A stretch of 64,000 nucleotides of DNA from Patescibacteria group bacterium (GTDB lineage: Bacteria > Patescibacteriota > UBA1384 > CAJBMM01), in assembly GCA_041660565.1 (NCBI GenBank), contig JBAZWC010000001.1, positions 430,481 to 494,480 on the forward strand, written 5' to 3'. The position numbers and the translations under genes were made by a program. Under the pieces are notes generated by a model. That model was not told the origin of the DNA, made no database searches, and saw nothing but the letters and a program-made list of their open reading frames with translations. Shown in pieces: positions 3,139 through 58,678 of this stretch. The stretch's first letter is position 1; every line of letters begins with the position of its first letter.

Positions 3139-3140
3139 CT

Positions 3141-3717: not shown

Positions 3718-3723
3718 TAATCC

Positions 3724-3781
3724 AATAAAGAATCAGCTCCGAGCGGGTGCACGGAGCTGAAAGAACCAGGAGTCGGGCGTC
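3724..3781. repeat. variant of the 63-bp boundary repeat (aataaagaatcAGCTCCGagcgggtgcaCGGAGCTgaaagaaccaggagtcgggcgtc)
   Basis: Same architecture as 1943-2005 (AGCTCCG hairpin followed by a G-rich tail). Lies between two minus-strand genes. Confidence 0.6.
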
Positions 3782-4317: not shown

Positions 4318-4353
4318 GATCGTATCCTCTCTGTGAAGGTTCTTGTCGTACGT

Positions 4354-4379
4354 CAGATACTATCGTTATATCATATTTT
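4354..4379 (-). promoter_or_regulatory. repeated promoter-like box (copy 2)
   Basis: Identical to 3692-3717. Confidence 0.45.
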
Positions 4380-4457
4380 CATAAAAAAAAGGGTTTGACG
4401 TCTACCTATTTTGTTTTTCGTGAAAAAATGTTAAAATATGAGTTAGGTGATAAATAA

Positions 4458-13160: not shown

Positions 13161-13859
13161 ATGTCATCAGCAAATACTGGCTCAACTGATAATATCCGTT
13201 TTGCCGTTTTGGCCGCCGATACGGTGCTGCTGACTTTTCAAAATGATAAATTATTTGTCAGATTAGTGTCTGTTAATCGCCCACCACATTTCCCCGAAGG
13301 GAGTAAAGGCTTGCCAGGGGGGCTACTATTTCCCGATGAAGTCGCAGAACAATCCGCTGCCAGACATATACAAACAAAAGGCGGAATTAATCCTGATAAA
13401 GTATACTTGGAGCAACTTTACACATTTAGTGAGGTTGATCGTGATCCACGTGGCCGGGTTGTCGCAGTAGCATATTTGGCCGTAGTACCATGGGATCGAC
13501 TTGATCCAATCGAAAAACAGAATAATAACGACGCATGGTGGAGTGAGGTTAGCAAAACTGGAAATCTAGCCTACGATCACAATAAAATTTTAGATATGGC
13601 TTTAACAAGACTTCGCCATCGTATTTCTTACTCAACGATTGTATGTAAGTTATTACCAAATGAATTTAGTTTGACCGAATTGCAAGATATTTTTTCGGTT
13701 GTATTATCAAAAAAACTTGATAAAAGAAATTTCCGAAAAAAAATACTCAAATTAGATATTCTGAAACCACTCTCCCACAAACAAGATAGTCGACCATACC
13801 GACCCGCGCGGCTATATACATACAAATCTTCGGACGTTGAAGAAATAGATATCATTTAA
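13161..13859 (+). CDS. nrtR: NrtR-family transcriptional regulator (Nudix-like ADP-ribose-binding domain plus C-terminal winged helix)
   Basis: Degenerate Nudix box GLLFPDEVAEQSAARHIQTKGG (RH instead of RE). C-terminal NEFSLTELQDIFSVVLSKKLDKRNFRKKI. Immediately upstream of nadM-nadV. AT-rich, like the host genome. Confidence 0.7.
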   Translation: MSSANTGSTDNIRFAVLAADTVLLTFQNDKLFVRLVSVNRPPHFPEGSKGLPGGLLFPDEVAEQSAARHIQTKGGINPDKVYLEQLYTFSEVDRDPRGRVVAVAYLAVVPWDRLDPIEKQNNNDAWWSEVSKTGNLAYDHNKILDMALTRLRHRISYSTIVCKLLPNEFSLTELQDIFSVVLSKKLDKRNFRKKILKLDILKPLSHKQDSRPYRPARLYTYKSSDVEEIDII

Positions 13860-13931
13860 ACATCGATCTCAATTTATTTTTATCTTGAAAGACCCTGAAA
13901 AGGGTTTTTTTGTTGGGGGGGTATTGACAAC

Positions 13932-13979
13932 GTGTAATTTATACACTATCTTAGAAATAGATAGTGTGATTTTTACACT
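13932..13979 (+). promoter_or_regulatory. cluster of three palindromes (candidate NrtR operators) overlapping a TTGACA-17-TATCTT promoter upstream of nadM
   Basis: GTGTAatttaTACAC (13932-13946), TATCTtagaaaTAGATA (13947-13963), AGTGTgatttttACACT (13963-13979). TTGACA at 13924-13929. Confidence 0.4.
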
Positions 13980-14006
13980 TAGCACATTAACAACAGGAGA
14001 TATACG

Positions 14007-14909
14007 ATGCCAAATGGTCCTGCAGCTGTGGGGGTAGTCGTTGCCCGATTTCAAGTGCCCGAGCTTACCCTCGGTCATCAAGCTCTGATTGAATTCGTAG
14101 AAAGCCAAGTCAAGCAAGTCTTGCTCGTACTCGGCACATCGGAAGCCTTTGCCACCAGCCGCAATCCCCTCAGCTTTGCCGCTAGACGGGAGATGGTTCT
14201 GGCATCGTACCCCAATGTCAAGGTGGTCAGTCTGGCTGATCACCCATCCGATTCCGTCTGGTCCACTAACCTGGATCAACTGATCAAAAAGATGTTCCCG
14301 GACCAGTCGGTTTCCCTCTACGGGTCGCGCGATTCCTTTCTAACCACCTACTCCGGCACCCTGCCTGTGGTTGACTTTCCCGCCTTACCTTGCCTGTCTG
14401 GAACCGAGAACCGTGTCGCCCTTCTAGACAACCCACCAACCAGCCCCGATTTCCGCAAGGGGATTGTCTACAGCCAAGTCGCCCGAGCCGGGATCCCCTA
14501 CGCCACTGTTGATATAGCAATCGTCGATGAGAACAAGGGGCTCGTTCTCTTGGGTGGCAAGCCAACTGACGGAGACCGCTATCGTTTCATCGGCGGTTTC
14601 GTTGATGTTAACGATGAATCCCTGGAACGAGCCGCAAAACGCGAGGCTTACGAAGAAACCGGCGGTCTCGAGATAGACGATCTCCGCTACTTCGGATCAG
14701 CGAAGGTCGTTGATTGGCGCTACCAAGGAACCGGCGATGGAATCTTGACTAGCTTCTTCGCCGCAACCTACATTTTCGGTTGCGCAAAGGCCCAGGACGA
14801 CATCGCACGAGTGAAATGGGTACCGATCAAGGAAGTCAAGCAGTACCTCGTCCCGGAACATCAGATTCTGGGCAGCATGCTCCTCAAACAGCACCATCTG
14901 ACACGATAA
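14007..14909 (+). CDS. nadM: bifunctional NMN adenylyltransferase / Nudix (ADP-ribose) pyrophosphatase, NadM-Nudix type
   Basis: N-terminal nucleotidyltransferase motif (ARFQ..ELTLGH). C-terminal Nudix box GGFVDVNDESLERAAKREAYEETGG. GC-rich. Confidence 0.8.
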   Translation: MPNGPAAVGVVVARFQVPELTLGHQALIEFVESQVKQVLLVLGTSEAFATSRNPLSFAARREMVLASYPNVKVVSLADHPSDSVWSTNLDQLIKKMFPDQSVSLYGSRDSFLTTYSGTLPVVDFPALPCLSGTENRVALLDNPPTSPDFRKGIVYSQVARAGIPYATVDIAIVDENKGLVLLGGKPTDGDRYRFIGGFVDVNDESLERAAKREAYEETGGLEIDDLRYFGSAKVVDWRYQGTGDGILTSFFAATYIFGCAKAQDDIARVKWVPIKEVKQYLVPEHQILGSMLLKQHHLTR

Positions 14910-14924
14910 GAAAGGGAGACGACC

Positions 14925-16313
14925 ATGTCTGACAACATCATCCTCCTCACCGACAGCTACAAGCCAACCCACGGCCCCCAGTACCCGCCACGCACCCAGA
15001 CTATCTTCTCGTTCTACGAGAGCCGGGGCGGCCTTTTCCCTGAGACCACCTTCTTTGGCCTCCAGTACCTGATCAAGCGATATCTGCTCGGTCAAGTGGT
15101 GACCGAGGAGAAGATCGAGGAAGCCTATGAAGTTCTGGGGAGCCACTTCGGCAACTCGAATTACATGAACCGGGCTGGCTGGGAATACATCCTGAAGGCA
15201 CACGGTGGACGGTTGCCAATCCTCATCCGGGCCATACCGGAGGGGACATCGATCCCAAACCACAACGTCCTCATGACGGTGCAGAACACCGACCCCAACG
15301 GCCTGCCATGGCTCACCAACTACCTGGAGACTCTGCTCTGCCAGGTCTGGTACCCCTGCACGGTCGCCACCCAGAGCCGGGCCATGCGCCAGGAGATCCT
15401 CCGCTTCCTCGAGGAAACGGGCGATCCCAGCCAAATCGACTTCAAGCTGCATGACTTCGGTTTCCGGGGTTCCACCAGCGTGGAGTCAGCTGGTATCGGC
15501 GGGGCGGCCCACTTGGTCAACTTCAAGGGGACTGACACCCTCGAAGCCATCATGGTCGCCCGTCGTTACTACGGCGAGAACATGGCCGGCTACTCGATCC
15601 CAGCCGCCGAGCACAGCACCATCACATCCTGGGGCAAAGAGCACGAGGCTGACGCTTACGCCAACATGCTCACGGCCTACCCCACCGGCACCGTAGCCGT
15701 AGTCTCGGACAGCTACGACGTATTCAACGCTTGTCGCTCCATCTGGGGTGGACAGCTCAAGGAGCGCGTTCTGGCCCGAGACGGCGTCCTCGTCATTCGC
15801 CCCGACAGCGGTAACCCCCCGGAAGTGGTCACCCAGGTCCTCGATATTCTCGGGCAGACCTTCGGCTTCACCACCAACGACAAGCAGTACAGGGTACTGC
15901 ACCCAAAGGTCCGGGTCATTCAGGGCGACGGCATCGACTACGCCATGATCACCCAGATCCTGACCGCTATGCGGCAGGCGGGATGGTCAGCTGATAATCT
16001 CGCCTTCGGCTCCGGCGGCGGTCTGCTCCAGAAGGTCAACCGAGACACCCAGCGTTTCGCCTTCAAGTGCTCAGCCGCTCAGATCGACGGAACCTGGCGC
16101 GATGTGATGAAGGACCCTGTCACTGATCCCGGCAAGCGTTCCAAGGCGGGCCATCTGGCCCTTGTACGCAACAGCGCCGGCGACTGGAAGACCATGCGCG
16201 AGTCAGACGCCGAAGCCATGGGATTCTCCAACCAACTAGTCCCTGTCTTCAAAGACGGCGCCCTATTGGTTGATTACAACTTCCAGTCCATTCGAGATCG
16301 CGCCGCGATGTAA
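14925..16313 (+). CDS. nadV: nicotinamide phosphoribosyltransferase (NAMPT/NadV)
   Basis: LLTDSYKPTH signature and full-length similarity to NadV. GC-rich. Starts 16 nt after the nadM stop. Confidence 0.85.
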   Translation: MSDNIILLTDSYKPTHGPQYPPRTQTIFSFYESRGGLFPETTFFGLQYLIKRYLLGQVVTEEKIEEAYEVLGSHFGNSNYMNRAGWEYILKAHGGRLPILIRAIPEGTSIPNHNVLMTVQNTDPNGLPWLTNYLETLLCQVWYPCTVATQSRAMRQEILRFLEETGDPSQIDFKLHDFGFRGSTSVESAGIGGAAHLVNFKGTDTLEAIMVARRYYGENMAGYSIPAAEHSTITSWGKEHEADAYANMLTAYPTGTVAVVSDSYDVFNACRSIWGGQLKERVLARDGVLVIRPDSGNPPEVVTQVLDILGQTFGFTTNDKQYRVLHPKVRVIQGDGIDYAMITQILTAMRQAGWSADNLAFGSGGGLLQKVNRDTQRFAFKCSAAQIDGTWRDVMKDPVTDPGKRSKAGHLALVRNSAGDWKTMRESDAEAMGFSNQLVPVFKDGALLVDYNFQSIRDRAAM

Positions 16314-16379
16314 GTCGCAGCACCTTCCGGCCTCCTATCGGGGGCCGGTTTTTCTGTAAATTTTTTTATTAGCTCGTTT

Positions 16380-16790
16380 ATGATGATTTTTTGGTATAGT
16401 GGGGGTATGGAAAAATATGAACTATGGTTCCGATTAGCGTATCGGGACATAATTTTAACCAAAAAAATGACCGCTGCCGTGCGTCCGGGAGATCGTCGTG
16501 CGCCAAATAACAAAGGAACTAGCATTGGCGAAAATGTGATTATTCGGGTGATGAAACTACCGGGTAATGAAGCTGAAAACATCAACCCGATATTTACAGA
16601 TGATAATATTCCTGCCAAAATAACGGCGATTGAGGTTAAGCGCTTGCAAGATGTTACGCCAGCGGATCTGATCGGATGTTCGGCAGATTGTTCGGATTGG
16701 CACGGCGTGGCAAACCAGCTAAGCTTAATCTACAACCAGGTATTTACCGGGCCCGAAGAAGTCAGCATCGTCCGGTTCGAATACACATAG
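16380..16790 (+). CDS. hypothetical protein (possible ASCH/PUA-like small domain)
   Basis: ORF only. The likely true start is at MEKYELW (16407). Confidence 0.3.
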   Translation: MMIFWYSGGMEKYELWFRLAYRDIILTKKMTAAVRPGDRRAPNNKGTSIGENVIIRVMKLPGNEAENINPIFTDDNIPAKITAIEVKRLQDVTPADLIGCSADCSDWHGVANQLSLIYNQVFTGPEEVSIVRFEYT

Positions 16791-16800
16791 GAGGACAGCC

Positions 16801-17790
16801 ATGATAATTCAGAAGTTGATCGATTCTAAGATGCTGACAGTTGCGTCAAAAGCGCAAGATAATCCGCCTAGTCTAGAAGGGTTGGATTTCTTCGCGGTTG
16901 GATACGCAGCCAAGGATTACCCCGCCCAGACGCCTCGGCTGTGGAACGCGCTTTACGCGCAATTTGGGCTGAATGTCCGCAATATCCGACTGATTGGATC
17001 ACCGGAGGTAGCGGGTGATGTATTCGATGCCTATCGGAATGACGACCGGTTTCTGGGCGGCGACGTCGGCGCTGGCATCAAGGACAAAGCATGGGTGATT
17101 GTCGATCAAATTGACCCGCTTGCCCGTGCAATGCAAGCGATCAACGTGGTAGTGCGAACAGACCACAAACTGGTCGGCTACAATACCGACGGCCATGGAT
17201 ATGTGGCCGGCTTGCAACAGGTAATGGATGCGACAGACAAAACCATCCTGATCTTAGGGGGTGGCGGCACCGCCAATGCCATCGCCTTTGCCGCAGCGGC
17301 CGCCAGGATGAAGCTGATCATCCTCAACCGCACCGTCAGCAAAGCAAATGACCTAGCCGTGCGAGTTAACCAGTTCTGCAACAAAGCGGTAGCGGTTTCA
17401 GGTGGGCGTGAGATGATATCAGCCGAAGCGCCGAAAGCCGACGTGATCGTTAGCGTAATCGACGATCCGCATTCACCGCTCGACCAATTCTCGGCACTGG
17501 GCGAGATTGAATTACCGGCAACACCAGACAGTCTGTCTCGAAACGTCGCCACCGCTACCAAAGTAATGCGAACGCTAAAGCCGGGTGTGCTGATTTCGGA
17601 TGTTGCGTTACGTGACAAGCCAACCGCAACGTTGCAGTTAGCAGCCAGCACCGGGCTAAAGACACAGGATGGCCGGCCGATGGTGCTAGAACAGGCCATT
17701 CTGGCGTTTTGGCTCGTCAACCAGCGGCTGCTCAAACCCCGCCGCATTACCCAAGCTCAAGTTGCAAAGGCGATGCGCCAAATCGCCTAA
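16801..17790 (+). CDS. shikimate/quinate 5-dehydrogenase family protein (AroE-like)
   Basis: GGDVGAGIKDK, NTDGHG, ILILGGGGTANAIAFA and ILNRTVSKANDLA blocks match AroE catalytic and Rossmann motifs. Confidence 0.65.
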   Translation: MIIQKLIDSKMLTVASKAQDNPPSLEGLDFFAVGYAAKDYPAQTPRLWNALYAQFGLNVRNIRLIGSPEVAGDVFDAYRNDDRFLGGDVGAGIKDKAWVIVDQIDPLARAMQAINVVVRTDHKLVGYNTDGHGYVAGLQQVMDATDKTILILGGGGTANAIAFAAAAARMKLIILNRTVSKANDLAVRVNQFCNKAVAVSGGREMISAEAPKADVIVSVIDDPHSPLDQFSALGEIELPATPDSLSRNVATATKVMRTLKPGVLISDVALRDKPTATLQLAASTGLKTQDGRPMVLEQAILAFWLVNQRLLKPRRITQAQVAKAMRQIA

Positions 17791-17807
17791 GGCAAATCCG
17801 TCAACCT

Positions 17808-17842
17808 AAGCCCTGCACCTTCGGGTGCAGGGCTATTTTTTT
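17808..17842 (+). terminator. intrinsic terminator
   Basis: AAGCCCTGCACC-ttcg-GGTGCAGGGCT followed by a T7 run. Confidence 0.75.
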
Positions 17843-18791: not shown

Positions 18792-18884
18792 GCCAATGCC
18801 GATATAGCTCCCTCCTTCGCCAAGGCTTCGGAAGGGCAAGCAGCTGGTTAGTACTGCAATAAGTGCTTTCGCCTGCCCCTCGTA
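18792..18884 (+). pseudogene. tRNA-like fragment / partial duplicate of the tRNA-Thr 5' end with an inserted hairpin
   Basis: gccaatgccgatatagctc (18792-18810) duplicates gccaatgccgacatagctc (18885-18903). A D-arm-like agctggttagtactgca and an anticodon-stem-like tgctttcg are present. The T-arm is absent. Confidence 0.5.
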
Positions 18885-18890
18885 GCCAAT

Positions 18891-18966
18891 GCCGACATAG
18901 CTCAGCTGGTAGAGCAGTGCTTTCGTAAAGCAAAGGTCATCGGTTCGATTCCGATTGTCGGCTCCA
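18891..18966 (+). tRNA. tRNA-Thr (anticodon CGT)
   Basis: GCCGACATAGCTCAGCTGGTAGAGCAGTGCTttcgtaaAGCAAAGGTCATCGGTTCGATTCCGATTGTCGGCTCCA. Confidence 0.8.
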
Positions 18967-19050
18967 GATTTTTGCAATCTATCGCCGCGTTTTCAACGAC
19001 CGGATCCAGATTTTTGCAATCTATCGCCGCGTTTTCAACGACCGGCTCCA
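18967..19050 (+). repeat. 2 x 42-bp tandem repeat abutting the tRNA-Thr 3' end, each unit ending in a tRNA-end-like CGG(A/C)TCCA
   Basis: gatttttgcaatctatcgccgcgttttcaacgaccggatcca repeated twice. The tRNA itself ends ..gtcggctcca. Confidence 0.7.
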
Positions 19051-19085
19051 AAAAAATTCTCCGCCAGGGAGAATTTTTGTTTGTC
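19051..19085. terminator. bidirectional intrinsic terminator
   Basis: aaaaaaaTTCTCCgccaGGGAGAAttttt, with T/A runs on both sides. Confidence 0.65.
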
Positions 19086-19305
19086 TTAAATATTAGTAGA
19101 CCGGTCCCGAAAGCGATGCCATCGGGACCGGGTTGTGCACGACCATCGCGCCCGTTGCCTAACCAAGGGATGGAAAGCGCTCTGCTTCCCAAGCCCCGCC
19201 GTGACGGGTTAGGTAACGAGCGGGGTCGCTGGTGTTACGAGGACCTTCATGTGAGTCCTCCTGGGTGAGCGCGGTGGTGGCTTTGGACATCTAGCCTGGC
19301 GCTCA
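19086..19305 (-). ncRNA. candidate GC-rich structured small RNA (about 220 nt), unknown class
   Basis: Minus-strand promoter TTGACA (19334-19339), 17 nt, TATTTT (19311-19316). GC-rich hairpins (GACCGGTCCCGA..TCGGGACCGG and GCCTAACC..GGTTAGG). Ends at the bidirectional terminator. Contains a 12-codon ORF with a perfect AGGAGG SD (MKVLVTPATPLVT). Confidence 0.35.
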
Positions 19306-19514
19306 TCAGTAAAATATCAAAAACGATTTTCGCTGTCAACAAAAAATAGAGCGCACGCTGATTTGCCAAATCCGTTGCCACCCTTAAATATCCCTAGTAA
19401 TCCTTAGCGATTCGAAAATCGCCTCTCCATTTTTAAATAAATTCGAGATTCCAAAAGTTTAAAAATTAAAAAACTATTTGACATTTGTCATTAGAAATTA
19501 GTCATTAGACATTT

Positions 19515-25769: not shown

Positions 25770-25842
25770 ATTTACCCCGTTCTGCGGGGTTAGTATTACT
25801 ATAACACATTTGGAGGATAGAAAATAGAGGGGATCACGACCT

Positions 25843-25910
25843 GTCATCCCCGCCCCGCTAAGCGGGGCTAAGGAACGCTTAGCGTCCCGACATTTTATTC
25901 GGGGATCCAG
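25843..25910. repeat. GTCATCCC/ACGCTTAGCGTCCC hairpin module
   Basis: CCCCGCcccgctaaGCGGGG and the ACGCTTAGCGT palindrome. The related GGGACGCTAAGCGTCCC recurs at 30775-30810. Confidence 0.5.
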
Positions 25911-25933
25911 AAAAAAACCTAGAAGTATTTTTC

Positions 25934-26020
25934 ATAGACTGCCCCGAAGTAAGTTCGGGATGGCTGGCGCCAGATTCCCACCGAAGTCTACCCCGAGCTT
26001 TGCCTCGGGGCGGGAATGAC
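25934..26020. repeat. 87-bp repeat, left copy (inverted relative to 30161-30248)
   Basis: atagactgccccgaag..cgggatggctggcgccagattccc..ctaccccgagctttgcctcggggcgggaatgac. Its reverse complement is about 90% identical to 30161-30248. Confidence 0.8.
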
Positions 26021-26029
26021 AACCTGCTC

Positions 26030-26057
26030 TTGACTCACACCACTGTTTTTGCCATAA
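26030..26057 (+). promoter_or_regulatory. sigma70-type promoter TTGACT-17-CATAAT
   Basis: ttgactcacaccactgtttttgccataat. The downstream leader ggcgttgatcttgaacaactt is shared with the unit starting at 26752. Confidence 0.6.
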
Positions 26058-26063
26058 TCGAGG

Positions 26064-26640
26064 TGTTAAGACGCATAGGGCGTTGATCTTGAACAACTTG
26101 CCCCATCGCAACCGTGGATACTGCTTACCTCTCGGAAGCGATGGCATCTCCTGCAAAAGTATTCAAGGAAGCCCTGTGCGCGTCGCCCCCACTCCCGAGC
26201 CCGGTCAAATGGGGCTCAAGTCCCGTTCAAAAAACGGAGAAGCGTATGAAGCAGTTCGTCGCCTAACCTATCAGCGGGGTGGTCTCGGCAACACGCACCT
26301 GTTGGATAGGTTGCGCGCCCGGACCATTAGATGTCCACTCTCGGTCGGCGTTGAGCGGATTAGATACCCGCTTCAGGTCGACCACGTCTGTTAGGATGTC
26401 GTTGTTTGTTGAACAGAGGCGCGGTGGGTGGGCGAACCCACCTCGCCTCTGGCCTCATCGTCACACATCATCCGCCAGCCGCGCAGGAAACCGCGCATCC
26501 AGCCCCACCTTTCTTCCTACATCCCTTTAAGCGAGGTTCGCCTCGTGTCCCAAGTCGCGCCCCCTCCCAGCCCGGGAGTGGGGCGCTTCTCATTTCCGTC
26601 GCCTTTTCACACCTCCGAGGTGTTTGCCGTTGCCACGGTT
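26064..26640 (+). ncRNA. candidate large GC-rich non-coding transcript, unit 1 (about 0.6 kb)
   Basis: About 62% GC. No ORF above 110 aa, and the small ORFs overlap in all frames. Strong promoter. Ends near the hairpin CACCTCCGAGGTG. Confidence 0.4.
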
Positions 26641-26704
26641 TCACCTCTGAGGAGTGAAATGTCTCTGTCCTCCGTCATCAGTCATCTGTTTTCCGACAGG
26701 GGTA

Positions 26705-26732
26705 TTGACAACCATTTTTATTCTGCTATAAT
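26705..26732 (+). promoter_or_regulatory. consensus sigma70 promoter TTGACA-16-TATAAT
   Basis: ttgacaaccatttttattctgctataat, followed by the leader ggcgttgaccttgaacaact. Confidence 0.7.
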
Positions 26733-26738
26733 GGATCA

Positions 26739-27874
26739 TGTACGCCGATAAAGGCGTTGACCTTGAACAACTGAAAATCCATATCCTCGTCCGGTTAGAG
26801 TCTGGTTAAACCGGCTTGTGGACAGGGTCCACCAGTGGTTCGGGATTGACGCCTTTTCGGCGTTTTGACAAGTTATTAGTCGTTTTTGCCCTAAAATCCA
26901 GCACGTCGAAAGGAAGCACGTCCATGAGGGTGCACGAGCCGTTCGTGAACTTGGAGAAGAACATATGCACGTTCGACGGCAGCACCGGCAACTCGATCAG
27001 CCCGGACGCCGGCCTCAGCGCGTGACCGCCTCCGGCGCCGCCTAGGCCACGGGCCTCGGCGCGCCCAACACGGCGCGTAGCGTGGTGCACGGGGCGCGGT
27101 GCGGCGAGGAGCGTCCTCCCCACCGCGCGCCCGTGGTCTCACAGCTGTTATCTTCCTTGAAGGGAGGCGTCGAGATGAGAGTCGCGACGTCGGGATTCAC
27201 CTAGCGGAAGCTAGGTCGGCCTACCCCGCGGTGTTCGGGCCAACCGGTTGGCAGAGGCACACCCTCTCGCCGGCTGGCGACACTGTGGGTCACTCCCTCC
27301 CCCGGCAGATCCGCCGGGAAAGGAGACACCCCCATGAACCTGCACCAAACCCTGGCCGCCATCAACGGCGGAGGGTAGCACGCGCTCGGCGGTTCGCGTC
27401 TGAGAGTCCGGGTACACCCCGGTTAAGATGAGGGGATCCGACACATAACGCGGATCGTGATCTAGTCGCACCTGTGAGAGTAAGAAGCTGTCCGTGGGCG
27501 GCTAACCCACGGAGCGCATCGATGGAATCTGCGCGAGCAGCGTCGCTGGCATAGGCCGGCGGTCATCTCTGCCGCAAAGCAGGTTCCGTCCTCGGGGCGG
27601 GCGTCGCACAGAGGGCCGTGATTCACTGGCCCCGTATGACACGCCTGGCCCGTCGCGACGCGGAGGGGAACTCGGCTGAACCAACCCCCTCCGCCTCGCC
27701 GTACGAAGTACAAACCGGCGCGTAGCGCGCCACACTACCAAATCGATCCTGGGCGGGACTCCTTCTCGCCCAACATGCCCGCAGCTTTGCATCCTGCGAC
27801 CATGGCTCGGCCGCTTCCCATCATCGGGGGGCGGCCGTTCTACTTTTTATACACCTTTTAGAGGTGTTTTTTTG
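26739..27874 (+). ncRNA. candidate large GC-rich non-coding transcript, unit 2 (about 1.1 kb, roughly 67% GC)
   Basis: Only short overlapping ORFs in all six frames. Two internal small ORFs carry strong SDs (gaaaggaag..ATG, 33 aa; aaaggaga..ATG MNLHQTLAAINGGG). Double terminator: GGCCGC..GCGGCC plus T-run, then ACACCTtttaGAGGTGT plus T7 (27852-27874). Confidence 0.4.
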
Positions 27875-27925
27875 ATTGAAAGAACGTAGCCCAAGCTTCT
27901 TGAACGTGAATTGGGAAACTATAAT

Positions 27926-28074
27926 GTCATTTCGACCCTAGGAGATTGTCAAATCGACTATGTTGGAGAAATCTGAGAAAGAATCCCTTCCCGTCTTTTC
28001 TTGAGATTTCTCCACCCTCGAGACAACGCTCGAGGCTCTGCCCGTAGGCTACGCCCGGAGGGAGTCGAAATGAC
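27926..28074. repeat. ~150-bp composite hairpin of the GTCATTTCGAC subfamily
   Basis: gtcatttcgaccct...agggagtcgaaatgac outer stem. Inner pair ggagaaatctgagaaagaa / ttcttgagatttctcc. Related to 55843-55908 and 56091-56137. Confidence 0.7.
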
Positions 28075-28167
28075 AGATTGTGGTCGATGGTTTGCAACAC
28101 ATAAGATGATCTAGTATTTTTGTTAAAAACGTCTTAGAATAATAATCGACAACATAAAGGAGTTTAT

Positions 28168-33946: not shown

Positions 33947-33996
33947 CCCAGACTTCAGTCTGTTTCTTAAACATACTAAAGTATGATCTACAAGTT

Positions 33997-34026
33997 TGGA
34001 GCGGGTGAAGGGAATCGGACCCTCGT
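33997..34026 (-). pseudogene. tRNA-like 3' half (T-arm plus acceptor plus CCA)
   Basis: The reverse complement reads ACGAGGGTCCGATTCCCTTCACCCGCTCCA. There is no matching 5' half within 40 nt. It pairs with the 5' half at 34164-34191. Confidence 0.5.
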
Positions 34027-34060
34027 GTCAGAGTTTGCCCGTCCTCCGCAGTAGCAAATT

Positions 34061-34134
34061 TGGAGCGGGTAACGGGAGTCGAACCCGTATCTTCACCTTG
34101 GAAGGGTGTCATAATACCGCTATACTATACCCGC
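34061..34134 (-). tRNA. tRNA-Gly (anticodon TCC)
   Basis: The reverse complement reads GCGGGTATAGTATAGCGGTATTATGACACCcttccaaGGTGAAGATACGGGTTCGACTCCCGTTACCCGCTCCA. Confidence 0.8.
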
Positions 34135-42662: not shown

Positions 42663-44030
42663 TTACTGCGACGCAAGGACCATGGTCTTCTTGACGGCCA
42701 CCGTTGCGGCGGTGATCGTCACCGGTTCGGCCACAGAGATCGTCTTGACGTTCAACTTGGCCCAGGCGGACTTGGTGCCGGCTGGGATTGTAACCGTGTA
42801 CGGCACAATCACGCCTGCCGAGGAACTGCTGAGGGTGATTACGATGCCCTCCGCCGGAGCCACCGTGTCTACACTAACCAGCACGGATGGAGTTGTCCCC
42901 GCCTTGACCACCGGTGGCAACGAGGCCAATCCGGTGATGCGGATGGGGGTAAGAACAAACGGTCGGAAGGAGTTGCTAATGGTGGCGTCTAGGAAACCAT
43001 TGGCGGCAATCCGTCCGTCCTCGCTGATACCCTTCCCAGCACAGATCAACACTGCGCTCTTAGGAATAAGATCATTGAGGTTGTACGCCTCGCCGTTTGC
43101 CCACAACATACCGGTGTCCGTGGGGGAATAGAACCTGGCGCCAACGATCAGATCATCGTTGTTGATAGCGAAGGGCCAACCCGGACCCAATACAAGATGA
43201 GCTGGAAGATCGTGCACCCCAGCTTCGTCCCAAAATGCGGGACCAAGACTGGTACGACCAACCACATGCCCACGGTCGTTTAGCGCTTCGCCGTGACACC
43301 GCTCATCCGGGGCGTGCCCGGGCAATCGTACCCAGCTGCCATTGGTGCTATCTGGGCCAGACGGGGTCCACACCGCATCGAACGTGACCCAGTTGGTCCA
43401 AAGCGTCCAATACCCGCCTGTTCCGAGCACTTGGCCTACAGCGTTGATCTGCTTCGCTGAGCTTGTATGTTCGCCGATATTCGAGTGAATGTTGAACGGT
43501 TGCCCGTCCTTCCTCCAGATGGTCGCAACAGTGTTGGGTGGAGTACCGTCCGGGGTATGATAGATGACAGACTCCCCGACGATGAACATCCTCGAGTTTA
43601 GGTCATATGCATAGCTACCAGAGATATTTCCTGATAGCACCCCCATCACTTTCTGTACAGTCCCGTCCCATGTGGAAGCTTGACTAGGGTAATAGCTGTA
43701 GCCGGCAATGACGCCCGCATCATTCACCCCTCTTCCGGATGAATAATGAATCGGGGATGTAGCATCAAGCACCCCCCTTCTCCAGACCAACAGCTTGTTG
43801 TTGTAGCTTTGGTTCCAGTACCCAACGATGGTATCTCCACTGGGGCTCATCCCAGTGATACTGTAAAACGGGCTACTATAGATTGGGTTGACATATGGAG
43901 TGGGCAACACCTTGGCGGTGTAGCTAACCCCAACTACCGGAGGAGTAGAAGCGTGTGCCGCAATGGCCAAAGCGGCAACGACAACGATGCCAACCACAAC
44001 CGAAACGAACCGAGAAAGCTTGCCGCTCAT
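42663..44030 (-). CDS. secreted HAF-family extracellular-repeat protein (GC-rich)
   Basis: Signal peptide from MSGKLSRF (ATG at 44030, RBS aaagga). Repeated G..NDxG.VxG motifs (GVNDAGVIAGYSY, INAVGQVLGTGG, ALNDRGHVVGRTS). About 60% GC. Confidence 0.6.
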   Translation of the reverse strand: MSGKLSRFVSVVVGIVVVAALAIAAHASTPPVVGVSYTAKVLPTPYVNPIYSSPFYSITGMSPSGDTIVGYWNQSYNNKLLVWRRGVLDATSPIHYSSGRGVNDAGVIAGYSYYPSQASTWDGTVQKVMGVLSGNISGSYAYDLNSRMFIVGESVIYHTPDGTPPNTVATIWRKDGQPFNIHSNIGEHTSSAKQINAVGQVLGTGGYWTLWTNWVTFDAVWTPSGPDSTNGSWVRLPGHAPDERCHGEALNDRGHVVGRTSLGPAFWDEAGVHDLPAHLVLGPGWPFAINNDDLIVGARFYSPTDTGMLWANGEAYNLNDLIPKSAVLICAGKGISEDGRIAANGFLDATISNSFRPFVLTPIRITGLASLPPVVKAGTTPSVLVSVDTVAPAEGIVITLSSSSAGVIVPYTVTIPAGTKSAWAKLNVKTISVAEPVTITAATVAVKKTMVLASQ

Positions 44031-44308: not shown

Positions 44309-44971
44309 ATGACAGAATATATTATTGTGCGGGCAAAACGCCGTAGTGTGCAAATCAAAATTGATCACGATGGTAAAGTGATAGTGCGGGCGCCGTTTTG
44401 GGTTTCCTTACGTCAAATTGATCAATTTGTGCATCAAAACGAGGCGTGGATTGCTAAAAGACTCGATGTACACCAACAGCAACCACACCGCCAATCGCAT
44501 CATTTTAATGATGGCGATATGTTTTGGTATTTGGGAAAAGAATATCCACTAAAGATTTCAGGTGAGATCAGTGGCAAGGTGAGATTTGAGAATGCGCTAA
44601 TTATTCCCAATACCAAACCGGAACTAGCTAGAACAATGATACTGAAATGGTACAAAAACGAGGCAGACATGTTTTTACGACAGCGGCTAGATCAATTTGC
44701 TACCTTAATGGATATTAAATATCATGCAGTCAAAATTACCTCAGCAACTAGCCGCTGGGGATCGTGCAATCACCTTAACTCAATTAGCCTGAATTGGAAG
44801 CTAATTCAAGTTCCAAAAGACGTTATTGATTACGTGGTGGTGCACGAGCTGGCGCACATTTTACAACATAACCATAGTAAACTGTTTTGGGCTGAGGTTG
44901 AAAAAGTACTACCCGATTATAAAATCAGGCGTAAATGGCTGAAAGACCACGGCTTTCTGTTGCAATTTTAA
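44309..44971 (+). CDS. DUF45/YgjP-like zinc metallopeptidase (M48-related HExxH)
   Basis: VVHELAHILQHNHS motif with a YgjP-like N-terminal region. Confidence 0.6.
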   Translation: MTEYIIVRAKRRSVQIKIDHDGKVIVRAPFWVSLRQIDQFVHQNEAWIAKRLDVHQQQPHRQSHHFNDGDMFWYLGKEYPLKISGEISGKVRFENALIIPNTKPELARTMILKWYKNEADMFLRQRLDQFATLMDIKYHAVKITSATSRWGSCNHLNSISLNWKLIQVPKDVIDYVVVHELAHILQHNHSKLFWAEVEKVLPDYKIRRKWLKDHGFLLQF

Positions 44972-44979
44972 CTCATCTA

Positions 44980-45009
44980 TTGACATTAAGATTCAGTTGG
45001 AGTATATAT
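44980..45009 (+). promoter_or_regulatory. sigma70 promoter TTGACA-18-TATATA
   Basis: ttgacattaagattcagttggagtatatata. Confidence 0.6.
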
Positions 45010-45015
45010 ATTAAT

Positions 45016-45432
45016 GTCAGGCCGAGAAAGTCCTGCGTCTCGCTGATCAGCGAGAAAGCAGGCCTTTCAAGCGACTAGCTAGATGGCGACCGAGTCCCAT
45101 CTAAGCCTGGCGCCACCAGTGGGTACCGCACCGAATTGCAAGTAGGGCAGTGCCCCAAAAACCAAATAAAGACAACCGAATATTGCCGATGGCGGCAGGG
45201 CAAGAAGTGTTCGGGAGTCGCGGAGGATCCTGCGGATTGCTCTGGTGAGCATGCACATGGAAGTCAATGGCGGGGACGTGCGTACGCCTTGCACTTCACC
45301 ATTAACGATCCCAAAGCGAGGATCAGCAGCCACCCGAGTACCCCTAAGGATCTCAGCCTTACCCGAACCAGGGGGTCGGCGCATTCGCGCCGGCCCCTCC
45401 CTATTTTTTTCAACCCTTGTGGTTGTTTTTTT
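45016..45432 (+). ncRNA. candidate GC-rich non-coding transcript, unit A (about 0.4 kb)
   Basis: About 60% GC and ORF-poor. Double terminator: GGTCGGCGCattcGCGCCGGCC plus T8, then CAACCcttgtGGTTG plus T7. Confidence 0.4.
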
Positions 45433-45459
45433 ATCTATAATTCAAGCAGTAATTCACTA

Positions 45460-45489
45460 TTGACATAAGTTTGTTACAAGAGTATATTC
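45460..45489 (+). promoter_or_regulatory. sigma70 promoter TTGACA-18-TATATT
   Basis: ttgacataagtttgttacaagagtatattc. Confidence 0.6.
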
Positions 45490-45495
45490 ATTGAT

Positions 45496-45898
45496 GTTGG
45501 GAGATAGCAGACGCGACGTCGCCATCTTCAATGCAGTTCGCCGGAAACTGCGGCGGTTGTGCGAGAGATTTCTCGCCAATCCAACACTGGTCACAAGGTG
45601 CTCGTGGGAGTTTCAACCAAGTGGCCAGGCTCCGACACAGCCTACGACGATCTGGGGGTCTGCATGGAGGTAACTCCACCGAAGAGAGTCGTATGGGATA
45701 TGTAACCGGATTCAAGCTCCAAGCCCATGGATACGGGCCACGCCGCTCTTAAGCGGATACCGAACCTCCGCACGGAGGACCATGGGATACAGCTCATATC
45801 TGTTTACAAACTCCCAAACCGCACACGCCTAACGGGGGCCGGTCGCCAGTTGATCGGCTCCCCCCCATTTTTTTCAACCCAAGTGGTTGTTTTTTTGT
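45496..45898 (+). ncRNA. candidate GC-rich non-coding transcript, unit B (about 0.4 kb)
   Basis: Same architecture as unit A, including the double terminator: GGGGGCCG..CGGCTCCCCC plus T7, then CAACCcaagtGGTTG plus T7. Confidence 0.4.
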
Positions 45899-45960
45899 CT
45901 CTAAATTTGCTAAAAATCGCAATTTATGGTTATGATAAGGTAGAGAACAAAGGGGATAAA

Positions 45961-47031
45961 ATGGAACAACCAGCGGTTCAACGCGTCAAATTTGACATTT
46001 CAACCAGTGCCATCATCAAAATTCTAGTGGTGATCTTTGGCATCTTCTTTTTGCAAAAAATTCAAAGCATATTGCTGTTATTATTAATTGTTTTGATCTT
46101 GGTAACCGCCCTTTCTCCGATTGTCGACTCGCTGGTTAAACGCTTGCAGATCAAGCGCTGGCTGGCTGTTACCTTAATTTTTAGCTCCATTGCCGTATTA
46201 CTGATTCTGGTTACATGGCTGATTGTGCCGTTGCTGTTTAGCCAGACAATCGACTTATTGCAACTACCACAAATCAAGAATTTATTTGGTATCACCGAAT
46301 CCAGCTCGGCGCTTGAAGAGTTGCAAATGTTATATGCCAAAATTCCCGGATTACCGACGGATAGCACCGGTTTTGTCAACTTTTTCTCGGCCATTTTTGG
46401 CGGCATCGCTAGCGCATTTACCATTCTGGTATTATCGCTATATCTTTTGCTTGATGAGGATGGCATTCGCAAATACATTCTGACTGTATTACCAACAACA
46501 CATAAAGAACAAATTGTTTCGGTGATACACAAAATTAGCGTCAAATTAGGATACTGGTTACGCGGTCAACTTTCCTTGGGATTGATTATCGGATTGATTG
46601 ATTTGGTTATTTTGCTTAGTTTCGGCGTACCTTATGCTTTGACTCTGGCAATTTTCGCCGGAGTAACCGAATTAATCCCGTATCTTGGACCATTTTTGGG
46701 GTACGGCGCCGCATTGTTTGTCGCACTAACCTCTGACTCGTCATTTCATATTAGCAAACTAGTAGTAGTAGTTGGCATTTCGATTGGATATCTAGTGGTA
46801 CAGCAACTGGAAGGTAATTTCTTGGTACCAAAAGTGATGCAAAAGTCAGTCGGGCTTTCGCCTGTAATAATAATTGTGGCAATTTTGATTGGCGCAAAAT
46901 TATTCGGATTAGTTGGTGTAATCCTATCCGTACCAATTGCGGCTGGTATTTCGGTTATTGCCGATGAATGGCCTGCCATTCAGCAAGCTTATCATAATAA
47001 TAAAGCCGGCATCTCTAAATCACTAGAATAA
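45961..47031 (+). CDS. AI-2E family transporter (PerM/YhhT-like)
   Basis: Eight TM helices with the conserved block GNFLVPKVMQKSVGLSPV. Start reset to the ATG at 45961 (RBS aaagggga), because the longer ORF runs back into GC-rich unit B. Confidence 0.75.
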   Translation: MEQPAVQRVKFDISTSAIIKILVVIFGIFFLQKIQSILLLLLIVLILVTALSPIVDSLVKRLQIKRWLAVTLIFSSIAVLLILVTWLIVPLLFSQTIDLLQLPQIKNLFGITESSSALEELQMLYAKIPGLPTDSTGFVNFFSAIFGGIASAFTILVLSLYLLLDEDGIRKYILTVLPTTHKEQIVSVIHKISVKLGYWLRGQLSLGLIIGLIDLVILLSFGVPYALTLAIFAGVTELIPYLGPFLGYGAALFVALTSDSSFHISKLVVVVGISIGYLVVQQLEGNFLVPKVMQKSVGLSPVIIIVAILIGAKLFGLVGVILSVPIAAGISVIADEWPAIQQAYHNNKAGISKSLE

Positions 47032-55842: not shown

Positions 55843-55908
55843 TGTCATTTCGACCCTGCGAGAATGTCAATTCGAGCGTGTTGGAGAAATCTAAGGAAGA
55901 ATCCCATC
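55843..55908. repeat. GTCATTTCGAC subfamily repeat
   Basis: cttgtcatttcgaccctgcgagaatgtcaattcgagcgtgttggagaaatctaaggaagaatccc. Related to 27926-28074. Confidence 0.6.
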
Positions 55909-56090
55909 CACAATTTTAAATTTTAAAGGCAAAATTTTAAATGAATAAGTACCGAATGATTAAATTTTAAATGGTTCCTTATTAAGTCATTAAAAATTGG
56001 CAACCATTCATTTGATAATCTCGAGCGTTCCGCGAGTGATTTCGATGCTAAGCATCTAATTAAAAATTAATAATTTATAATTCTTTTTTT

Positions 56091-56137
56091 GCAGATTTCT
56101 CCACCCTCGACTTGAATATCGAGGAGTCGAAATGACA
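56091..56137. repeat. GTCATTTCGAC subfamily repeat (reverse orientation)
   Basis: cagatttctccaccctcgacttgaatatcgaggagtcgaaatgac. Confidence 0.6.
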
Positions 56138-57379: not shown

Positions 57380-57437
57380 ATTAGTTATATCCTACCACAA
57401 AATCATATTCTAAGCAATCATAATCGGCAATTATTTA

Positions 57438-57465
57438 TTGCAAATTGTCTCTTTTCTGATAGAAT
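57438..57465 (+). promoter_or_regulatory. promoter TTGCAA-16-TAGAAT, copy 1 of a duplicated about 45-bp promoter module
   Basis: ttgcaaattgtctcttttctgatagaataatgacatcaca. A near-identical copy lies at 57743-57785. Confidence 0.6.
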
Positions 57466-57495
57466 AATGACATCACATGTACGGAGGCACGACGA

Positions 57496-57690
57496 ATGCC
57501 AGGTCAAACCGGTCTTACCTTCGACGAGCTTGTGCACGCGCTGATTTCCGCTTCCATTGCACTCGGCAAGATGGAAAAGCAACACCAGATTCGCCATACC
57601 CCACCCGACGAGACGGAACGTTTGCTCGCGCCACTTCGTTCTCGAGTAGAAGAGATCCGAAACGAAATCGTGTGCGCACATTATGCGTGA
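57496..57690 (+). CDS. small helical protein, paralog 1 (64 aa, GC-rich)
   Basis: MPGQTGLTFDELVHALISASIALGKMEKQH.. Its own promoter and terminator are duplicated around the next gene. Confidence 0.5.
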   Translation: MPGQTGLTFDELVHALISASIALGKMEKQHQIRHTPPDETERLLAPLRSRVEEIRNEIVCAHYA

Positions 57691-57709
57691 ACCGGACATC
57701 ATCATGCCA

Positions 57710-57741
57710 CGCCGCGGGTCAAGACAGACCGCGGCTTTTTT
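57710..57741 (+). terminator. intrinsic terminator, copy 1
   Basis: GCCGCGGgtcaagacagaCCGCGGC plus T7. Confidence 0.7.
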
Positions 57742-57742
57742 T

Positions 57743-57771
57743 GTTGCAAATTGTCTATTTTCTGATACAAT
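57743..57771 (+). promoter_or_regulatory. promoter TTGCAA-17-TACAAT, copy 2
   Basis: ttgcaaattgtctattttctgatacaataatggcatcaca. Confidence 0.6.
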
Positions 57772-57801
57772 AATGGCATCACAGCGACACAGAGGTGTGC
57801 C

Positions 57802-57996
57802 ATGAACGTAACACGGATGAGTGCAGCTCAGTTGGTGGACAGCCTCATCGACAAGACGGCTGAGCTCACAGAACTACGCCACGACAAGGACGTAACTTCA
57901 GTGGCAGCTAGGAATGCTCAGGACATTTGCACAGCCGAGCGAGACCAGTGCCGCGCTGAGATTCTCCGGCGGCTTGGAGCCAAGAAAGCCGAGTAG
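57802..57996 (+). CDS. small helical protein, paralog 2 (64 aa, GC-rich)
   Basis: MNVTRMSAAQLVDSLIDKTAELTELRHDKD.. The L-V-x-[AS]-L-I register is shared with paralog 1. Confidence 0.5.
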   Translation: MNVTRMSAAQLVDSLIDKTAELTELRHDKDVTSVAARNAQDICTAERDQCRAEILRRLGAKKAE

Positions 57997-58030
57997 CCCG
58001 CCATCCCCACCACCTCACCCTCCCCACCAC

Positions 58031-58065
58031 GCCGCGGGTCAAGACCGACCGCGGCTATTTATTTT
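58031..58065 (+). terminator. intrinsic terminator, copy 2
   Basis: GCCGCGGgtcaagaccgaCCGCGGC followed by tatttatttt. Confidence 0.65.
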
Positions 58066-58678
58066 GGGAATACGACTGAATTACTTTAACAATCGCCTCG
58101 TGAACTTCATCAACAGTCCCAGATGCATCAACCACCTTTATTCGATCAGGATTATTTTTTGCCAAATCCAAATACGCCTGACGAATTTTTTGATGAAATT
58201 CTAAACCCTCTTTTTCAAAACGATTCTGATCTTCTTGCCGCGACAACCCGATCTTTGGGTCAATGTCTAACAATATCGTCAAATCTGGTTTGATATTACC
58301 AGTGGCAAATAGATTCAGATTATTCACCTCTCCAAGTTCAATCCCGCGAACATATCCTTGATACACCGCGGATGAATCGATAAATCGATCACAAATAACC
58401 ACAGAACCTTTGTGTAAATGCGGCTTGATTAGTTTCTCACAAACTTGCGACCTAGACGCTAAAAATAGAAGCAGTTCGGCGTTGGTCGTTAGTGGTGACG
58501 GTGGATCTAAAATAATCTGGCGAATTTTTTCGGCTGTCTCTTCACCACCTGGCTCTCGCAGGGTAAAAACATCATGCTTAGCCTCGGTTAACCACTCGGC
58601 GAGCAATTTTACTTGCGTCGATTTACCGGTGCCTTCGCCACCCTCAAAAGTAATAAAAATGCCGTTTAGATTTGCCAT
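58055..58678 (-). CDS. tmk: thymidylate kinase
   Basis: FITFEGGEGTGKSTQ P-loop, DR(F/Y) motif, lid region. Confidence 0.9.
   Translation of the reverse strand: MANLNGIFITFEGGEGTGKSTQVKLLAEWLTEAKHDVFTLREPGGEETAEKIRQIILDPPSPLTTNAELLLFLASRSQVCEKLIKPHLHKGSVVICDRFIDSSAVYQGYVRGIELGEVNNLNLFATGNIKPDLTILLDIDPKIGLSRQEDQNRFEKEGLEFHQKIRQAYLDLAKNNPDRIKVVDASGTVDEVHEAIVKVIQSYSQNK

Follow-up and report, generated by a model that had tools for sequence, protein, structure and literature searches.

We analysed a stretch of 64,000 nucleotides (nt; the window) from a Patescibacteria group bacterium (assembly GCA_041660565.1, contig JBAZWC010000001.1, positions 430,481 to 494,480), and consider here two GC-rich units, A and B, that lie in tandem between a gene for a YgjP-like protein and perM; their coordinates and those of related features are collected in Table 1. 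The window (45.7% GC) holds ordinary chromosomal functions, including RNase Y, YmdB, glutamate dehydrogenase, a PpiC/SurA-type rotamase, GAPDH, an aldolase, Rpe, RpiB and ABC transporters, together with tRNA genes at scattered sites and an RNase P RNA of 488 nt, and about 20 GC-rich islands (53–66% GC) are set into this backbone. The bodies of the two units have 56–57% GC and their flanks 43% (44–45 kb) and 41% (46–47 kb); an earlier note on this DNA had put the units at about 60% GC, a slightly high figure. The YgjP-like protein matches, with 100% identity, a protein annotated on a 516-kb contig of a Patescibacteria group bacterium assembly, and an identical 4.6-kb contig is present in run SRR18595301. 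Public gene calls lengthen perM by 78 codons into unit B (45727–45960), giving 434 instead of 356 amino acids (aa), and place a 101-aa open reading frame (ORF) antisense on unit A (45079–45384); both calls are annotation artefacts.

Table 1. Features of the ygjP–perM locus and related features, in window coordinates or, for relatives, in the coordinates of their contigs.
Feature	Coordinates	Strand	Description
YgjP-like / SprT-family metalloprotease gene, upstream backbone	44309..44971	+	upstream of unit A
Unit A	45014–45432	+	body and two-step terminator
Unit A promoter module	44977..45017	+	CTATTGACAT, 17-nt spacer, GAGTATATA, then ATTAATGT; ATG 45014 is the predicted +1
Unit A body	45014..45370	+	357 nt, 57% GC, non-coding
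Unit A two-step terminator	45371..45432	+	hairpin 1 and T7, then hairpin 2 and T7
Unit B	45494–45898	+	body and two-step terminator
Unit B promoter module	45457..45497	+	CTATTGACAT, 17-nt spacer, GAGTATATT, then CATTGATGT; ATG 45494 is the predicted +1
Unit B body	45494..45833	+	340 nt, 56% GC, non-coding
Unit B two-step terminator	45834..45898	+	hairpin 1 and T7, then hairpin 2 and T7
perM, AI-2E family transporter gene, downstream backbone	45961..47031	+	promoter-like site 45907–45936
Two-step terminator design, third and diverged copy	27805..27881	+	closes a ~1-kb GC-rich unit at 26.9–27.87 kb
Non-coding unit of a relative	L019:1590–2010		ygjP–perM interval; promoter and terminator
Non-coding unit of a relative	L017:4200–4760		ygjP–perM interval; promoter and terminator
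Non-coding unit of a relative	L021:3185–3380		ygjP–perM interval; promoter and terminator
Non-coding unit of a relative	L025:985–1215		ygjP–perM interval; promoter and terminator

Each unit opens with a promoter module of its own. The −35 box TTGACA lies at 44980–44985 in A and 45460–45465 in B, and the −10 boxes read TATATA (45003–45008) and TATATT (45483–45488); as a sequence match only, both promoters agree with the consensus hexamers at 11 of 12 positions with a spacer of 17 nt. The promoters that the earlier note had placed before the units are present, with a spacer one nucleotide shorter than the 18 it gave. Perfect TTGACA-N17-TATA sites number three in the 64 kb, two of them being those of A and B, and when up to one mismatch is allowed the window contains 12 such sites versus 4.6 ± 2.0 expected. 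The two 5′ modules have CTATTGACAT, GAGTATAT and ATTRATGT in common, and in both an ATG begins exactly 6 nt past the −10 box; the two ATGs are the likely transcription starts. We note in addition that the unit A promoter sits inside a perfect 9/9-bp inverted repeat, TGACATTAA (44981–44989) and TTAATGTCA (45011–45019), which overlaps the −35 box and the +1 site, is partly retained in unit B, and may be a repressor operator.

At the other end, each unit is closed by the two-step terminator described earlier, a strong GC hairpin with a T-run followed by CAACC-N5-GGTTG and seven Ts, which we found at both places. Hairpin 1 has 12 bp in each unit (45371–45398, −27.0 kcal/mol, followed by CCCTA-T7, in A; 45834–45862, −21.6 kcal/mol, followed by CCCCA-T7, in B), with the T7 run beginning 4–5 nt after the stem. 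Hairpin 2 has 5 bp and −4.3 kcal/mol in each, reading CAACC-CTTGT-GGTTG in A (45411–45432 with the T7 that follows) and CAACC-CAAGT-GGTTG in B (45875–45896, likewise with its T7). Across the 64 kb there are exactly two sites of the form CAACC-N5-GGTTGTTTTT, versus 0.01 expected, and the 3′ modules are homologous to one another (45855–45904 versus 45391–45440, 86% identity over 50 nt). In both modules the hexamers of the promoters, the stems of the terminators and the T-runs have been kept, and the promoter spacer and the hairpin-2 loop have diverged, which is the pattern expected from an old duplication followed by selection on regulatory function. The anatomy of the units is thus directly observed. 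The same terminator design was said to close a further unit at 27.8 kb, and its geometry does recur there, with a hairpin at 27808–27837 followed by ACACC...GGTGT and T7 at 27851–27874; the resemblance to the A/B module is one of layout, with only 60% identity and a different second stem.

Between these shared ends, the bodies of A and B cannot be aligned. Aligned globally, they score lower than shuffled sequences do on average (z = −1.0), in keeping with the claim that the units have no common primary sequence, and since neither global nor local alignment exceeds z = 0 we ruled out diverged paralogues. Neither body has a second copy in the window and neither contains tandem repeats; together with the identity of the neighbours, YgjP and PerM, this led us to reject a retron msr-msd, the template repeat of a diversity-generating retroelement, and a CRISPR array.

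Several measures indicate that the bodies do not encode proteins. The spread of GC across codon positions is 0.08 in A and 0.11 in B, compared with 0.08 in the RNase P RNA and 0.22–0.36 in coding sequences (CDSs), the controls including GC-rich genes and, at 17.9 kb, a gene of 84 aa. When the GC-rich CDSs of the window were used to train a codon log-likelihood model, it gave 3.4 for A (p = 0.73 against shuffles) and 6.9 for B (p = 0.055), with leave-one-out scores of 6.6–11.5 for the CDSs themselves. The ORFs are longer than the merely short, overlapping ones noted before, reaching 101 aa on the minus strand and 110 aa on the plus strand (the latter running through the terminators), and none of them carries a coding signal. 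On the transcribed strand of A or B we found no credible ORF of at least 20 aa led by a Shine–Dalgarno (SD) site, in a scan that recovered the control genes at 57.5 kb and 57.8 kb and perM and did not recover the one at 17.9 kb. Unit A offers no SD-led start whose ORF ends before the terminator; in unit B the longest ORF with an SD-like leader is a 43-aa GTG ORF at 45621 with a weak GGAG only, and the sole ORF behind a full GGAGG has 16 aa, a 3-nt spacing and a position within a stem. The suggestion that such units might express small peptides is accordingly not supported for SD-led ORFs of this size. Searches of translated frames, covering 10 of the 12 reading frames in each library and all 12 across the two together, returned nothing credible from Pfam (E ≤ 1) or PHROGs (E ≤ 0.1). 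The 101-aa minus-strand ORF of A matches only itself among 1.84 billion representative proteins in an exhaustive HMMER search and belongs to no Pfam family, and a word-index search of 5.8 billion clusters brought up no relative of a 75-aa ORF from unit B. On periodicity, codon model, frame searches and these two ORF searches we rejected a protein gene or a recent pseudogene.

An alternative that these data bear on directly is that the units encode small proteins in another way, either leaderless from an AUG at +1 (10 aa, MSGRESPASR, in A; 59 aa in B) or through the 101-aa minus-strand ORF. It draws on the placement of the ATG at an identical distance from the −10 box in both units, on the 59/60-aa ORF that begins at the unit B ATG, and on the public gene call for the minus-strand ORF. 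We nevertheless consider it very unlikely: the two leaderless ORFs are unrelated and far apart in length, codon periodicity is absent, other genes of the window use SD sites, and the 101-aa ORF opposes the promoter and terminators in addition to lacking homologues. Moreover, the ORF translations are rich in Arg, Pro and Ser, as expected for out-of-frame, non-coding GC-rich DNA. We conclude from the sequence that both bodies are non-coding, with a small residual doubt attached to leaderless translation from the +1 AUG.

As RNAs, the bodies fold better than chance. Folded without their terminators and set against dinucleotide shuffles, the plus strands reach z = −4.35 in A and −3.62 in B, and the antisense strands give weaker values of −3.4 and −2.5. 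For comparison, five GC-rich CDS segments range from +1.1 to −2.2, the RNase P RNA reaches −5.7, and other GC-rich non-coding units of the window and of relatives fall between −2.8 and −4.9. Unit A is predicted to be highly structured, its fold consisting of a 5′ multi-branched domain (45016–45111), an A/C-rich single-stranded linker (approximately 45155–45185) and a 3′ domain; that of unit B contains, at 45693–45818, a rod of 126 nt whose tip branches three ways. The better-than-random folding is a direct result of these comparisons, and the earlier interpretation is supported to the extent that A and B look like autonomous units whose payloads are mutually unrelated, non-coding and better folded than shuffled controls.

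These folds do not correspond to a known RNA family. Over 44900–46000, the Rfam 15 covariance models, which include tmRNA, 6S, SRP, RNase P, OLE, GOLLD, ROOL, raiA, HEARO, group I and II introns, riboswitches and ribozymes, gave no match at the gathering score and, at E ≤ 10, just three chance-level matches to small nucleolar RNA or small RNA (sRNA) models far below gathering; the check for known families that had been proposed for A and B is thereby negative. The other GC-rich non-coding units of the window also lack Rfam matches at E ≤ 1. Because smpB follows perM in relatives, a tmRNA identity was worth excluding, and it was dropped after ARAGORN and Rfam were negative here and the tmRNAs of relatives were detected elsewhere in their genomes. 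Covariance models built from single sequences (the 5′ domain of A and the rod of B) had no hits other than the sequences they came from when run over the window plus 86 kb from relatives. A role as a CsrA sponge was likewise dropped: GGA motifs are not enriched (8 in A versus 7.4 expected; 11 in B versus 8.1 expected), and no repeated loop motif rises above the multiple-testing expectation. The repeated 6-mers that do occur (AUGGCG and AGGAUC, three times each, in A; UCGCCA and GGAUAC, three times each, in B) lie within that expectation. Units A and B contain complementary repeated words, UGGCG and CGCCA, and a perfect 10-nt match, and pairing between the two RNAs was rejected as not significant (complementary k-mers, p ~ 0.1; duplex energy, p = 0.83). 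A lead towards an 11-nt tetraloop receptor (CCUAAG in A and in the units of two relatives, L019u and L017u) was abandoned for lack of a matching UAUGG partner geometry, the window containing only 16 CCTAAG sites. No significant complementarity was found between A or B and the rest of the window.

The coding and folding results together bear on the main rival explanation, which starts from the concept of the moron. Phage morons, an idea that goes back to Hendrix and Juhala, are autonomous promoter–gene–terminator units of atypical composition placed between conserved genes. Under this rival, A and B would be decayed GC-rich small-protein morons with eroded frames, and transcription from their promoters would no longer serve a function. 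The window does contain intact protein cassettes that are alike in size, GC content and architecture (17.9 kb and 57.4–58.1 kb), A and B have no conserved relatives, and the codon-model signal of unit B in one plus-strand frame is borderline. We still judge decay to be unlikely, since a residual period-3 signal is absent (in A there is none whatever), the frames searched show no Pfam or PHROG similarity, and the folding is better than that of GC-rich CDS controls and stronger on the transcribed strand. Both units also keep perfect consensus promoters and intact two-step terminators, and their GC content has not relaxed toward the AT-rich intergenic level.

To place the locus in an evolutionary frame, we compared it with relatives reached through PerM, of which seven aligned at 60–68% identity and five gave contigs that were compared (L017, L019, L021, L023 and L025). 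The relatives keep the order RNase Y – YmdB – ... – YgjP – [variable] – PerM – SmpB, so that insertion of A and B into a conserved backbone is directly seen, and the content of the ygjP–perM interval differs in every genome, each of the five having other content. In four relatives the interval contains a non-coding unit that has both a TTGAC-type promoter and a hairpin terminator of its own (Table 1). These units sit after ygjP or a DUF456 gene and before an MBL-fold gene or perM, a position that is conserved where the sequence is not: comparisons of the relatives' units with A, with B and with each other by blastn, nhmmer, MAFFT, k-mers against shuffles and local alignment (all |z| < 2) revealed no similarity. 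Orthology of A and B with the syntenic units was therefore rejected, every comparison being at chance level. As a calibration, the tmRNAs of two relatives align with 69% identity over 392 columns (z = 74); since an RNA gene is alignable at the same distance, the missing similarity of the units means non-orthology or turnover and not mere distance. Comparison with L017 shows the GC-rich secreted-protein gene at 42663–44030 (minus strand) to be inserted too, its place being between the tRNAs and ygjP.

The same comparison speaks to the idea that A, B or both are a cis-acting leader or attenuator that regulates perM by termination. In its favour, unit B and perM are on one strand, and 63 nt separate the end of the unit from the gene downstream. 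This reading is nonetheless extremely improbable, as perM has a promoter-like site of its own, two serial terminators and a T7 run lie before it, unrelated genes directly precede perM in the relatives with short gaps and no such leader, and no riboswitch or leader family was matched.

Searches for an outside source of the payloads were also negative. A check for homologs in phages had been suggested earlier, and blastn found no match to A or B in 50,697 phage records (nor in 72,556 plasmid records), with no PHROG match either; exact 20–23-mers of A and B were absent from IMG/VR and from the JGI metagenome contigs. A phage, plasmid or donor origin thus receives no support from blastn or exact k-mers, and the orphan status of the two units is, within these collections, a direct observation. 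Literature searches returned nothing on such RNAs in Patescibacteria.

We next turn to whether the architecture is peculiar to these RNAs, as the earlier note had supposed in describing a dedicated system for expressing structured RNAs. A repeat census of the window identified two further tandem pairs with shared flanks and unrelated payloads, and in both the payloads are small proteins. In the plus-strand pair at 57431–58071, the promoter modules (57431–57477 and 57737–57783) are 89% identical and the terminator modules (57707–57751 and 58027–58071) 87% identical, enclosing SD-led ORFs (57496–57690 and 57802–57996) of exactly 64 aa each that BLASTP cannot align; their equal length and saturated divergence hint at rapidly diversifying paralogues. 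In the minus-strand pair at 3077–4391, a promoter repeat of 38 nt is 89% identical (3693–3730 and 4354–4391) and the payloads are ORFs of 108 aa (3317–3643) and 178 aa (3781–4317); a terminator repeat of this region is 63 nt long and 100% identical between 1943–2005 and 3077–3139, with a diverged third copy at about 3728–3760. The surrounding region (1916–4391, mostly minus strand) contains GC-rich protein cassettes of 108, 178 and 246 aa (the last at 2240–2980), none with a Pfam family, and a truncated copy of the start of the 108-aa gene at 2004–2051. Tandem terminators occur on a protein gene as well, the secreted-protein gene at 42663–44030 ending in two hairpin terminators; the RNase P RNA has a single one. 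Each module family is local to its own pair and no module is shared across the window. Outside A and B, the window has no copy of their exact terminator module, and the wider census that had been proposed gave only 15 chance hits in unrelated phyla among GTDB representatives and none in JGI metagenome contigs.

The modules are therefore ordinary sigma-70-type promoters and intrinsic terminators, and the same layout flanks protein payloads; the notion of a dedicated expression system for structured RNAs is not supported, and the non-specificity of the architecture is plainly observed. The circumstance that the earlier note had itself named as counting against its idea, namely that the modules are ordinary ones common to protein genes, very nearly describes the two protein pairs. 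What does persist from its claim is that the promoter/double-terminator design recurs at 27.8 kb in geometry. The cassette design is a general packaging of small accessory genes in this genome, and A and B are candidate lineage-specific RNA genes as opposed to parts of a special expression system.

A stronger form of the idea would make the conserved flanks the recombination handles of a dedicated cassette system that swaps RNA or peptide payloads, integron-like with a promoter on each cassette. Three tandem pairs within 64 kb, with near-identical flanks, sharp homology boundaries and unrelated payloads, fit it, as do the diverged A/B terminator at 27.8 kb and the different units in the ygjP–perM interval of each relative. 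We regard it as distinctly unlikely all the same. The module families are each confined to one local pair; no integrase, recombinase or attC-associated protein appears among the Pfam-scanned ORFs, several ORFs at 51–64 kb being unscanned; the conserved flank positions are exactly the hexamers, stems and T-runs, which fits regulatory selection after an old tandem duplication; and the small-gene arrays of the relatives have no repeated junctions. A more far-reaching version, to which we give very little credence, is that the lineage keeps fast-turnover promoter–payload–terminator cassettes with the flanks as recombination handles, and that some payloads, among them those of A, B and the units at 26–27.9 kb, are highly expressed, structured, GC-rich effector RNAs. 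Decoys, sponges or antisense RNAs against phage or against the high-GC host of an episymbiont are possible roles in that case, and such cassettes would account for the foreign composition, for payloads that have diverged to saturation and for the conservation of position but not of sequence in the ygjP–perM interval.

Promoter-led units occur in other GC-rich stretches of the window. The 2.4 kb at 25780–28167, up to 73% GC, contains no convincing gene; three or more units there begin with a promoter (TTGACT at 26030, TTGACA-16-TATAAT, a perfect match, at 26705, and TTGACA at 26866), with fold z-scores of −3.2 to −4.9 and no Rfam match. The motif GCGTTGAYCTTGAACAACT is repeated there at about 26080 and about 26755, and the 26705 unit opens with a possible leaderless 23-aa ORF. 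On the minus strand, 19050–19339 contains a unit of approximately 240 nt and 63% GC with a TTGACA-17-TATTTT promoter, hairpin terminators, a fold z-score of −4.5 and no Rfam match, a further candidate non-coding RNA.

Taking the evidence on A and B together, we consider it moderately probable that they are moron-like autonomous accessory cassettes carrying orphan, probably structured, non-coding RNA payloads. The two units would have been inserted into the variable ygjP–perM interval of an otherwise ordinary Patescibacteria chromosome, each bringing along a sigma-70 promoter and an intrinsic terminator of its own and, between them, a payload whose base composition is foreign. The predicted product of each is a discrete RNA of about 390–420 nt, whose 5′ end would lie at or near the ATG downstream of the −10 box and whose 3′ end would lie at the first or the second terminator, so that two 3′ isoforms may be formed. 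These RNAs would encode no protein and would comprise a 5′ stem-loop domain and a well-folding body. The promoter and terminator modules around the unrelated payloads presumably arose by local copying, either in a tandem duplication or when flanks recombined. We infer that the RNAs are expressed and functional; their likeliest role would be that of a lineage-specific trans-acting RNA, regulatory or protein-binding, in which the 3′ GC clamp followed by U7–hairpin–U7 would give stability or a handle for a chaperone.

Several points weigh against this interpretation. The fold z-scores of single sequences are suggestive and not conclusive, one CDS control itself reaching −2.2; covariation is the only strong computational proof of functional RNA structure, and with no homologues of A or B the predicted structures rest on single sequences. 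Efficient termination is an assumption, given the gap of 4–5 nt between hairpin 1 and the U-run and the weakness of hairpin 2. The orphan status rests on sparse sampling, the source genome and its close relatives being absent from the searched DNA collections. Finally, sequence comparisons revealed no target, partner protein or conserved motif for either RNA.

Among known systems, the phage moron is the closest concept. Like morons, A and B have a sigma-70-type promoter and a factor-independent terminator of their own, an atypical composition (56–57% GC versus neighbours at ~42–43%), and a site between genes that are adjacent or near-adjacent in relatives, with rapid turnover among related genomes. 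Three of the four defining features are thus present, and the fourth, a prophage context, is not: the units lie in an ordinary chromosome among genes for glycolysis, RNase Y and transporters with no recognisable prophage, their neighbours are housekeeping genes, and blastn against phages, PHROGs and exact IMG/VR matching were all negative. They differ from morons also in carrying non-coding RNA and not protein, and in forming tandem pairs with duplicated regulatory modules.

With lineage-specific sRNAs and those of the Hfq-binding type, A and B share a free-standing promoter and intrinsic terminator, a 5′ stem-loop, the lack of an ORF and a narrow distribution. The 3′ module of Hfq-type sRNAs reportedly consists of one or more hairpins flanked by U-rich tracts, as described by Otaka in 2011 and Ishikawa in 2012. 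In both units, U7-CAACC..GGUUG-U7 follows the GC hairpin, an order of elements similar to that of the 3′ module to which Hfq binds in enterobacterial sRNAs. At ~400 nt, A and B are, however, two to four times longer than typical base-pairing sRNAs, and they show no target complementarity in the window. CsrB/RsmZ sponges are closer in length (~350–400 nt) and similarly have their own promoter and terminator, poorly conserved sequence and paralogous copies, but differ in the GGA enrichment and repeated loop motifs that are missing here.

The GC-rich intergenic-region approach has uncovered large structured non-coding RNAs in AT-rich genomes, among them OLE, GOLLD, ROOL, raiA and HEARO (PMC8723152, PMC6429828, PMC11109978). 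Like these, A and B form long intergenic islands that are richer in GC than the genome around them, are predicted to be strongly structured and show no sign of coding; the named classes, in contrast, are defined by conservation and covariation over many genomes, and A and B have no detectable homologue or Rfam match. They are thus orphan candidates of the type that such screens find, without the conservation that defines the named classes. Integron cassettes, lastly, share with A and B the unrelated payloads, the repeated junction sequences between them and a locus that varies among relatives. They differ in that A and B have a promoter for each unit, in that the repeats are promoter and terminator sequences and not attC, and in that the array has two units only; the repeated junctions of A and B coincide with the promoter and terminator elements, and none of the window's ORFs that were scanned is a recombinase or integrase (with the limit at 51–64 kb given above).

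A few other elements of the window may be recorded. A repeated element at 27925–28021 and 55843–56110 (67 nt at 85% identity and 26 nt at 88%) forms the long hairpin TGTCATTTCGACCC ... GGGAGTCGAAATGACA and looks like a miniature inverted-repeat transposable element or a repetitive extragenic palindromic element. At the tRNA-Thr gene (18891–18966), 19 nt spanning the 5′ boundary are duplicated upstream at 18792–18810, and on the 3′ side two 42-nt direct repeats include the 3′ end of the gene (18959–19042); these repeats (18792–19042) may be scars of integration or excision. A tRNA fragment at 33991–34022 is 84% identical to 34055–34086, which comprises the 3′ part of tRNA-Gly (34061–34134) and 6 nt downstream, and lies 64 nt from that intact gene. 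A 33-nt AT-rich repeat, TAATTTGAAATTTGAAATTTTTAATTTGAAATG, occurs five times (20566, 23612, 47099, 55911 and 61677); one degenerate copy lies within an AT-rich insertion of the RNase P RNA gene, which has 488 nt versus a 367-position model. At 13161–17842, an AT-rich gene for an NrtR-type regulator (13161–13859) adjoins a GC-rich operon (55–60% GC) encoding a NUDIX protein, NAMPT, a 136-aa ORF and a shikimate-DH-like protein, with its own TTGACA promoter and a strong terminator; the region looks like an acquired NAD-salvage module.

Almost nothing is known of the non-coding RNAs of the ultra-small, mostly uncultured Patescibacteria (the candidate phyla radiation), and the locus is a clear target for the mapping of metatranscriptome reads. 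If the units were only transcribed junk, the finding would be an ordinary one. Should expression and stability of A and B be borne out, the two would be new lineage-specific RNA genes; and in that case, together with the other GC-rich units of the window, they would suggest that a sizeable share of the accessory genome consists of small autonomous RNA or small-protein cassettes, quickly gained and lost between the genes of the backbone.

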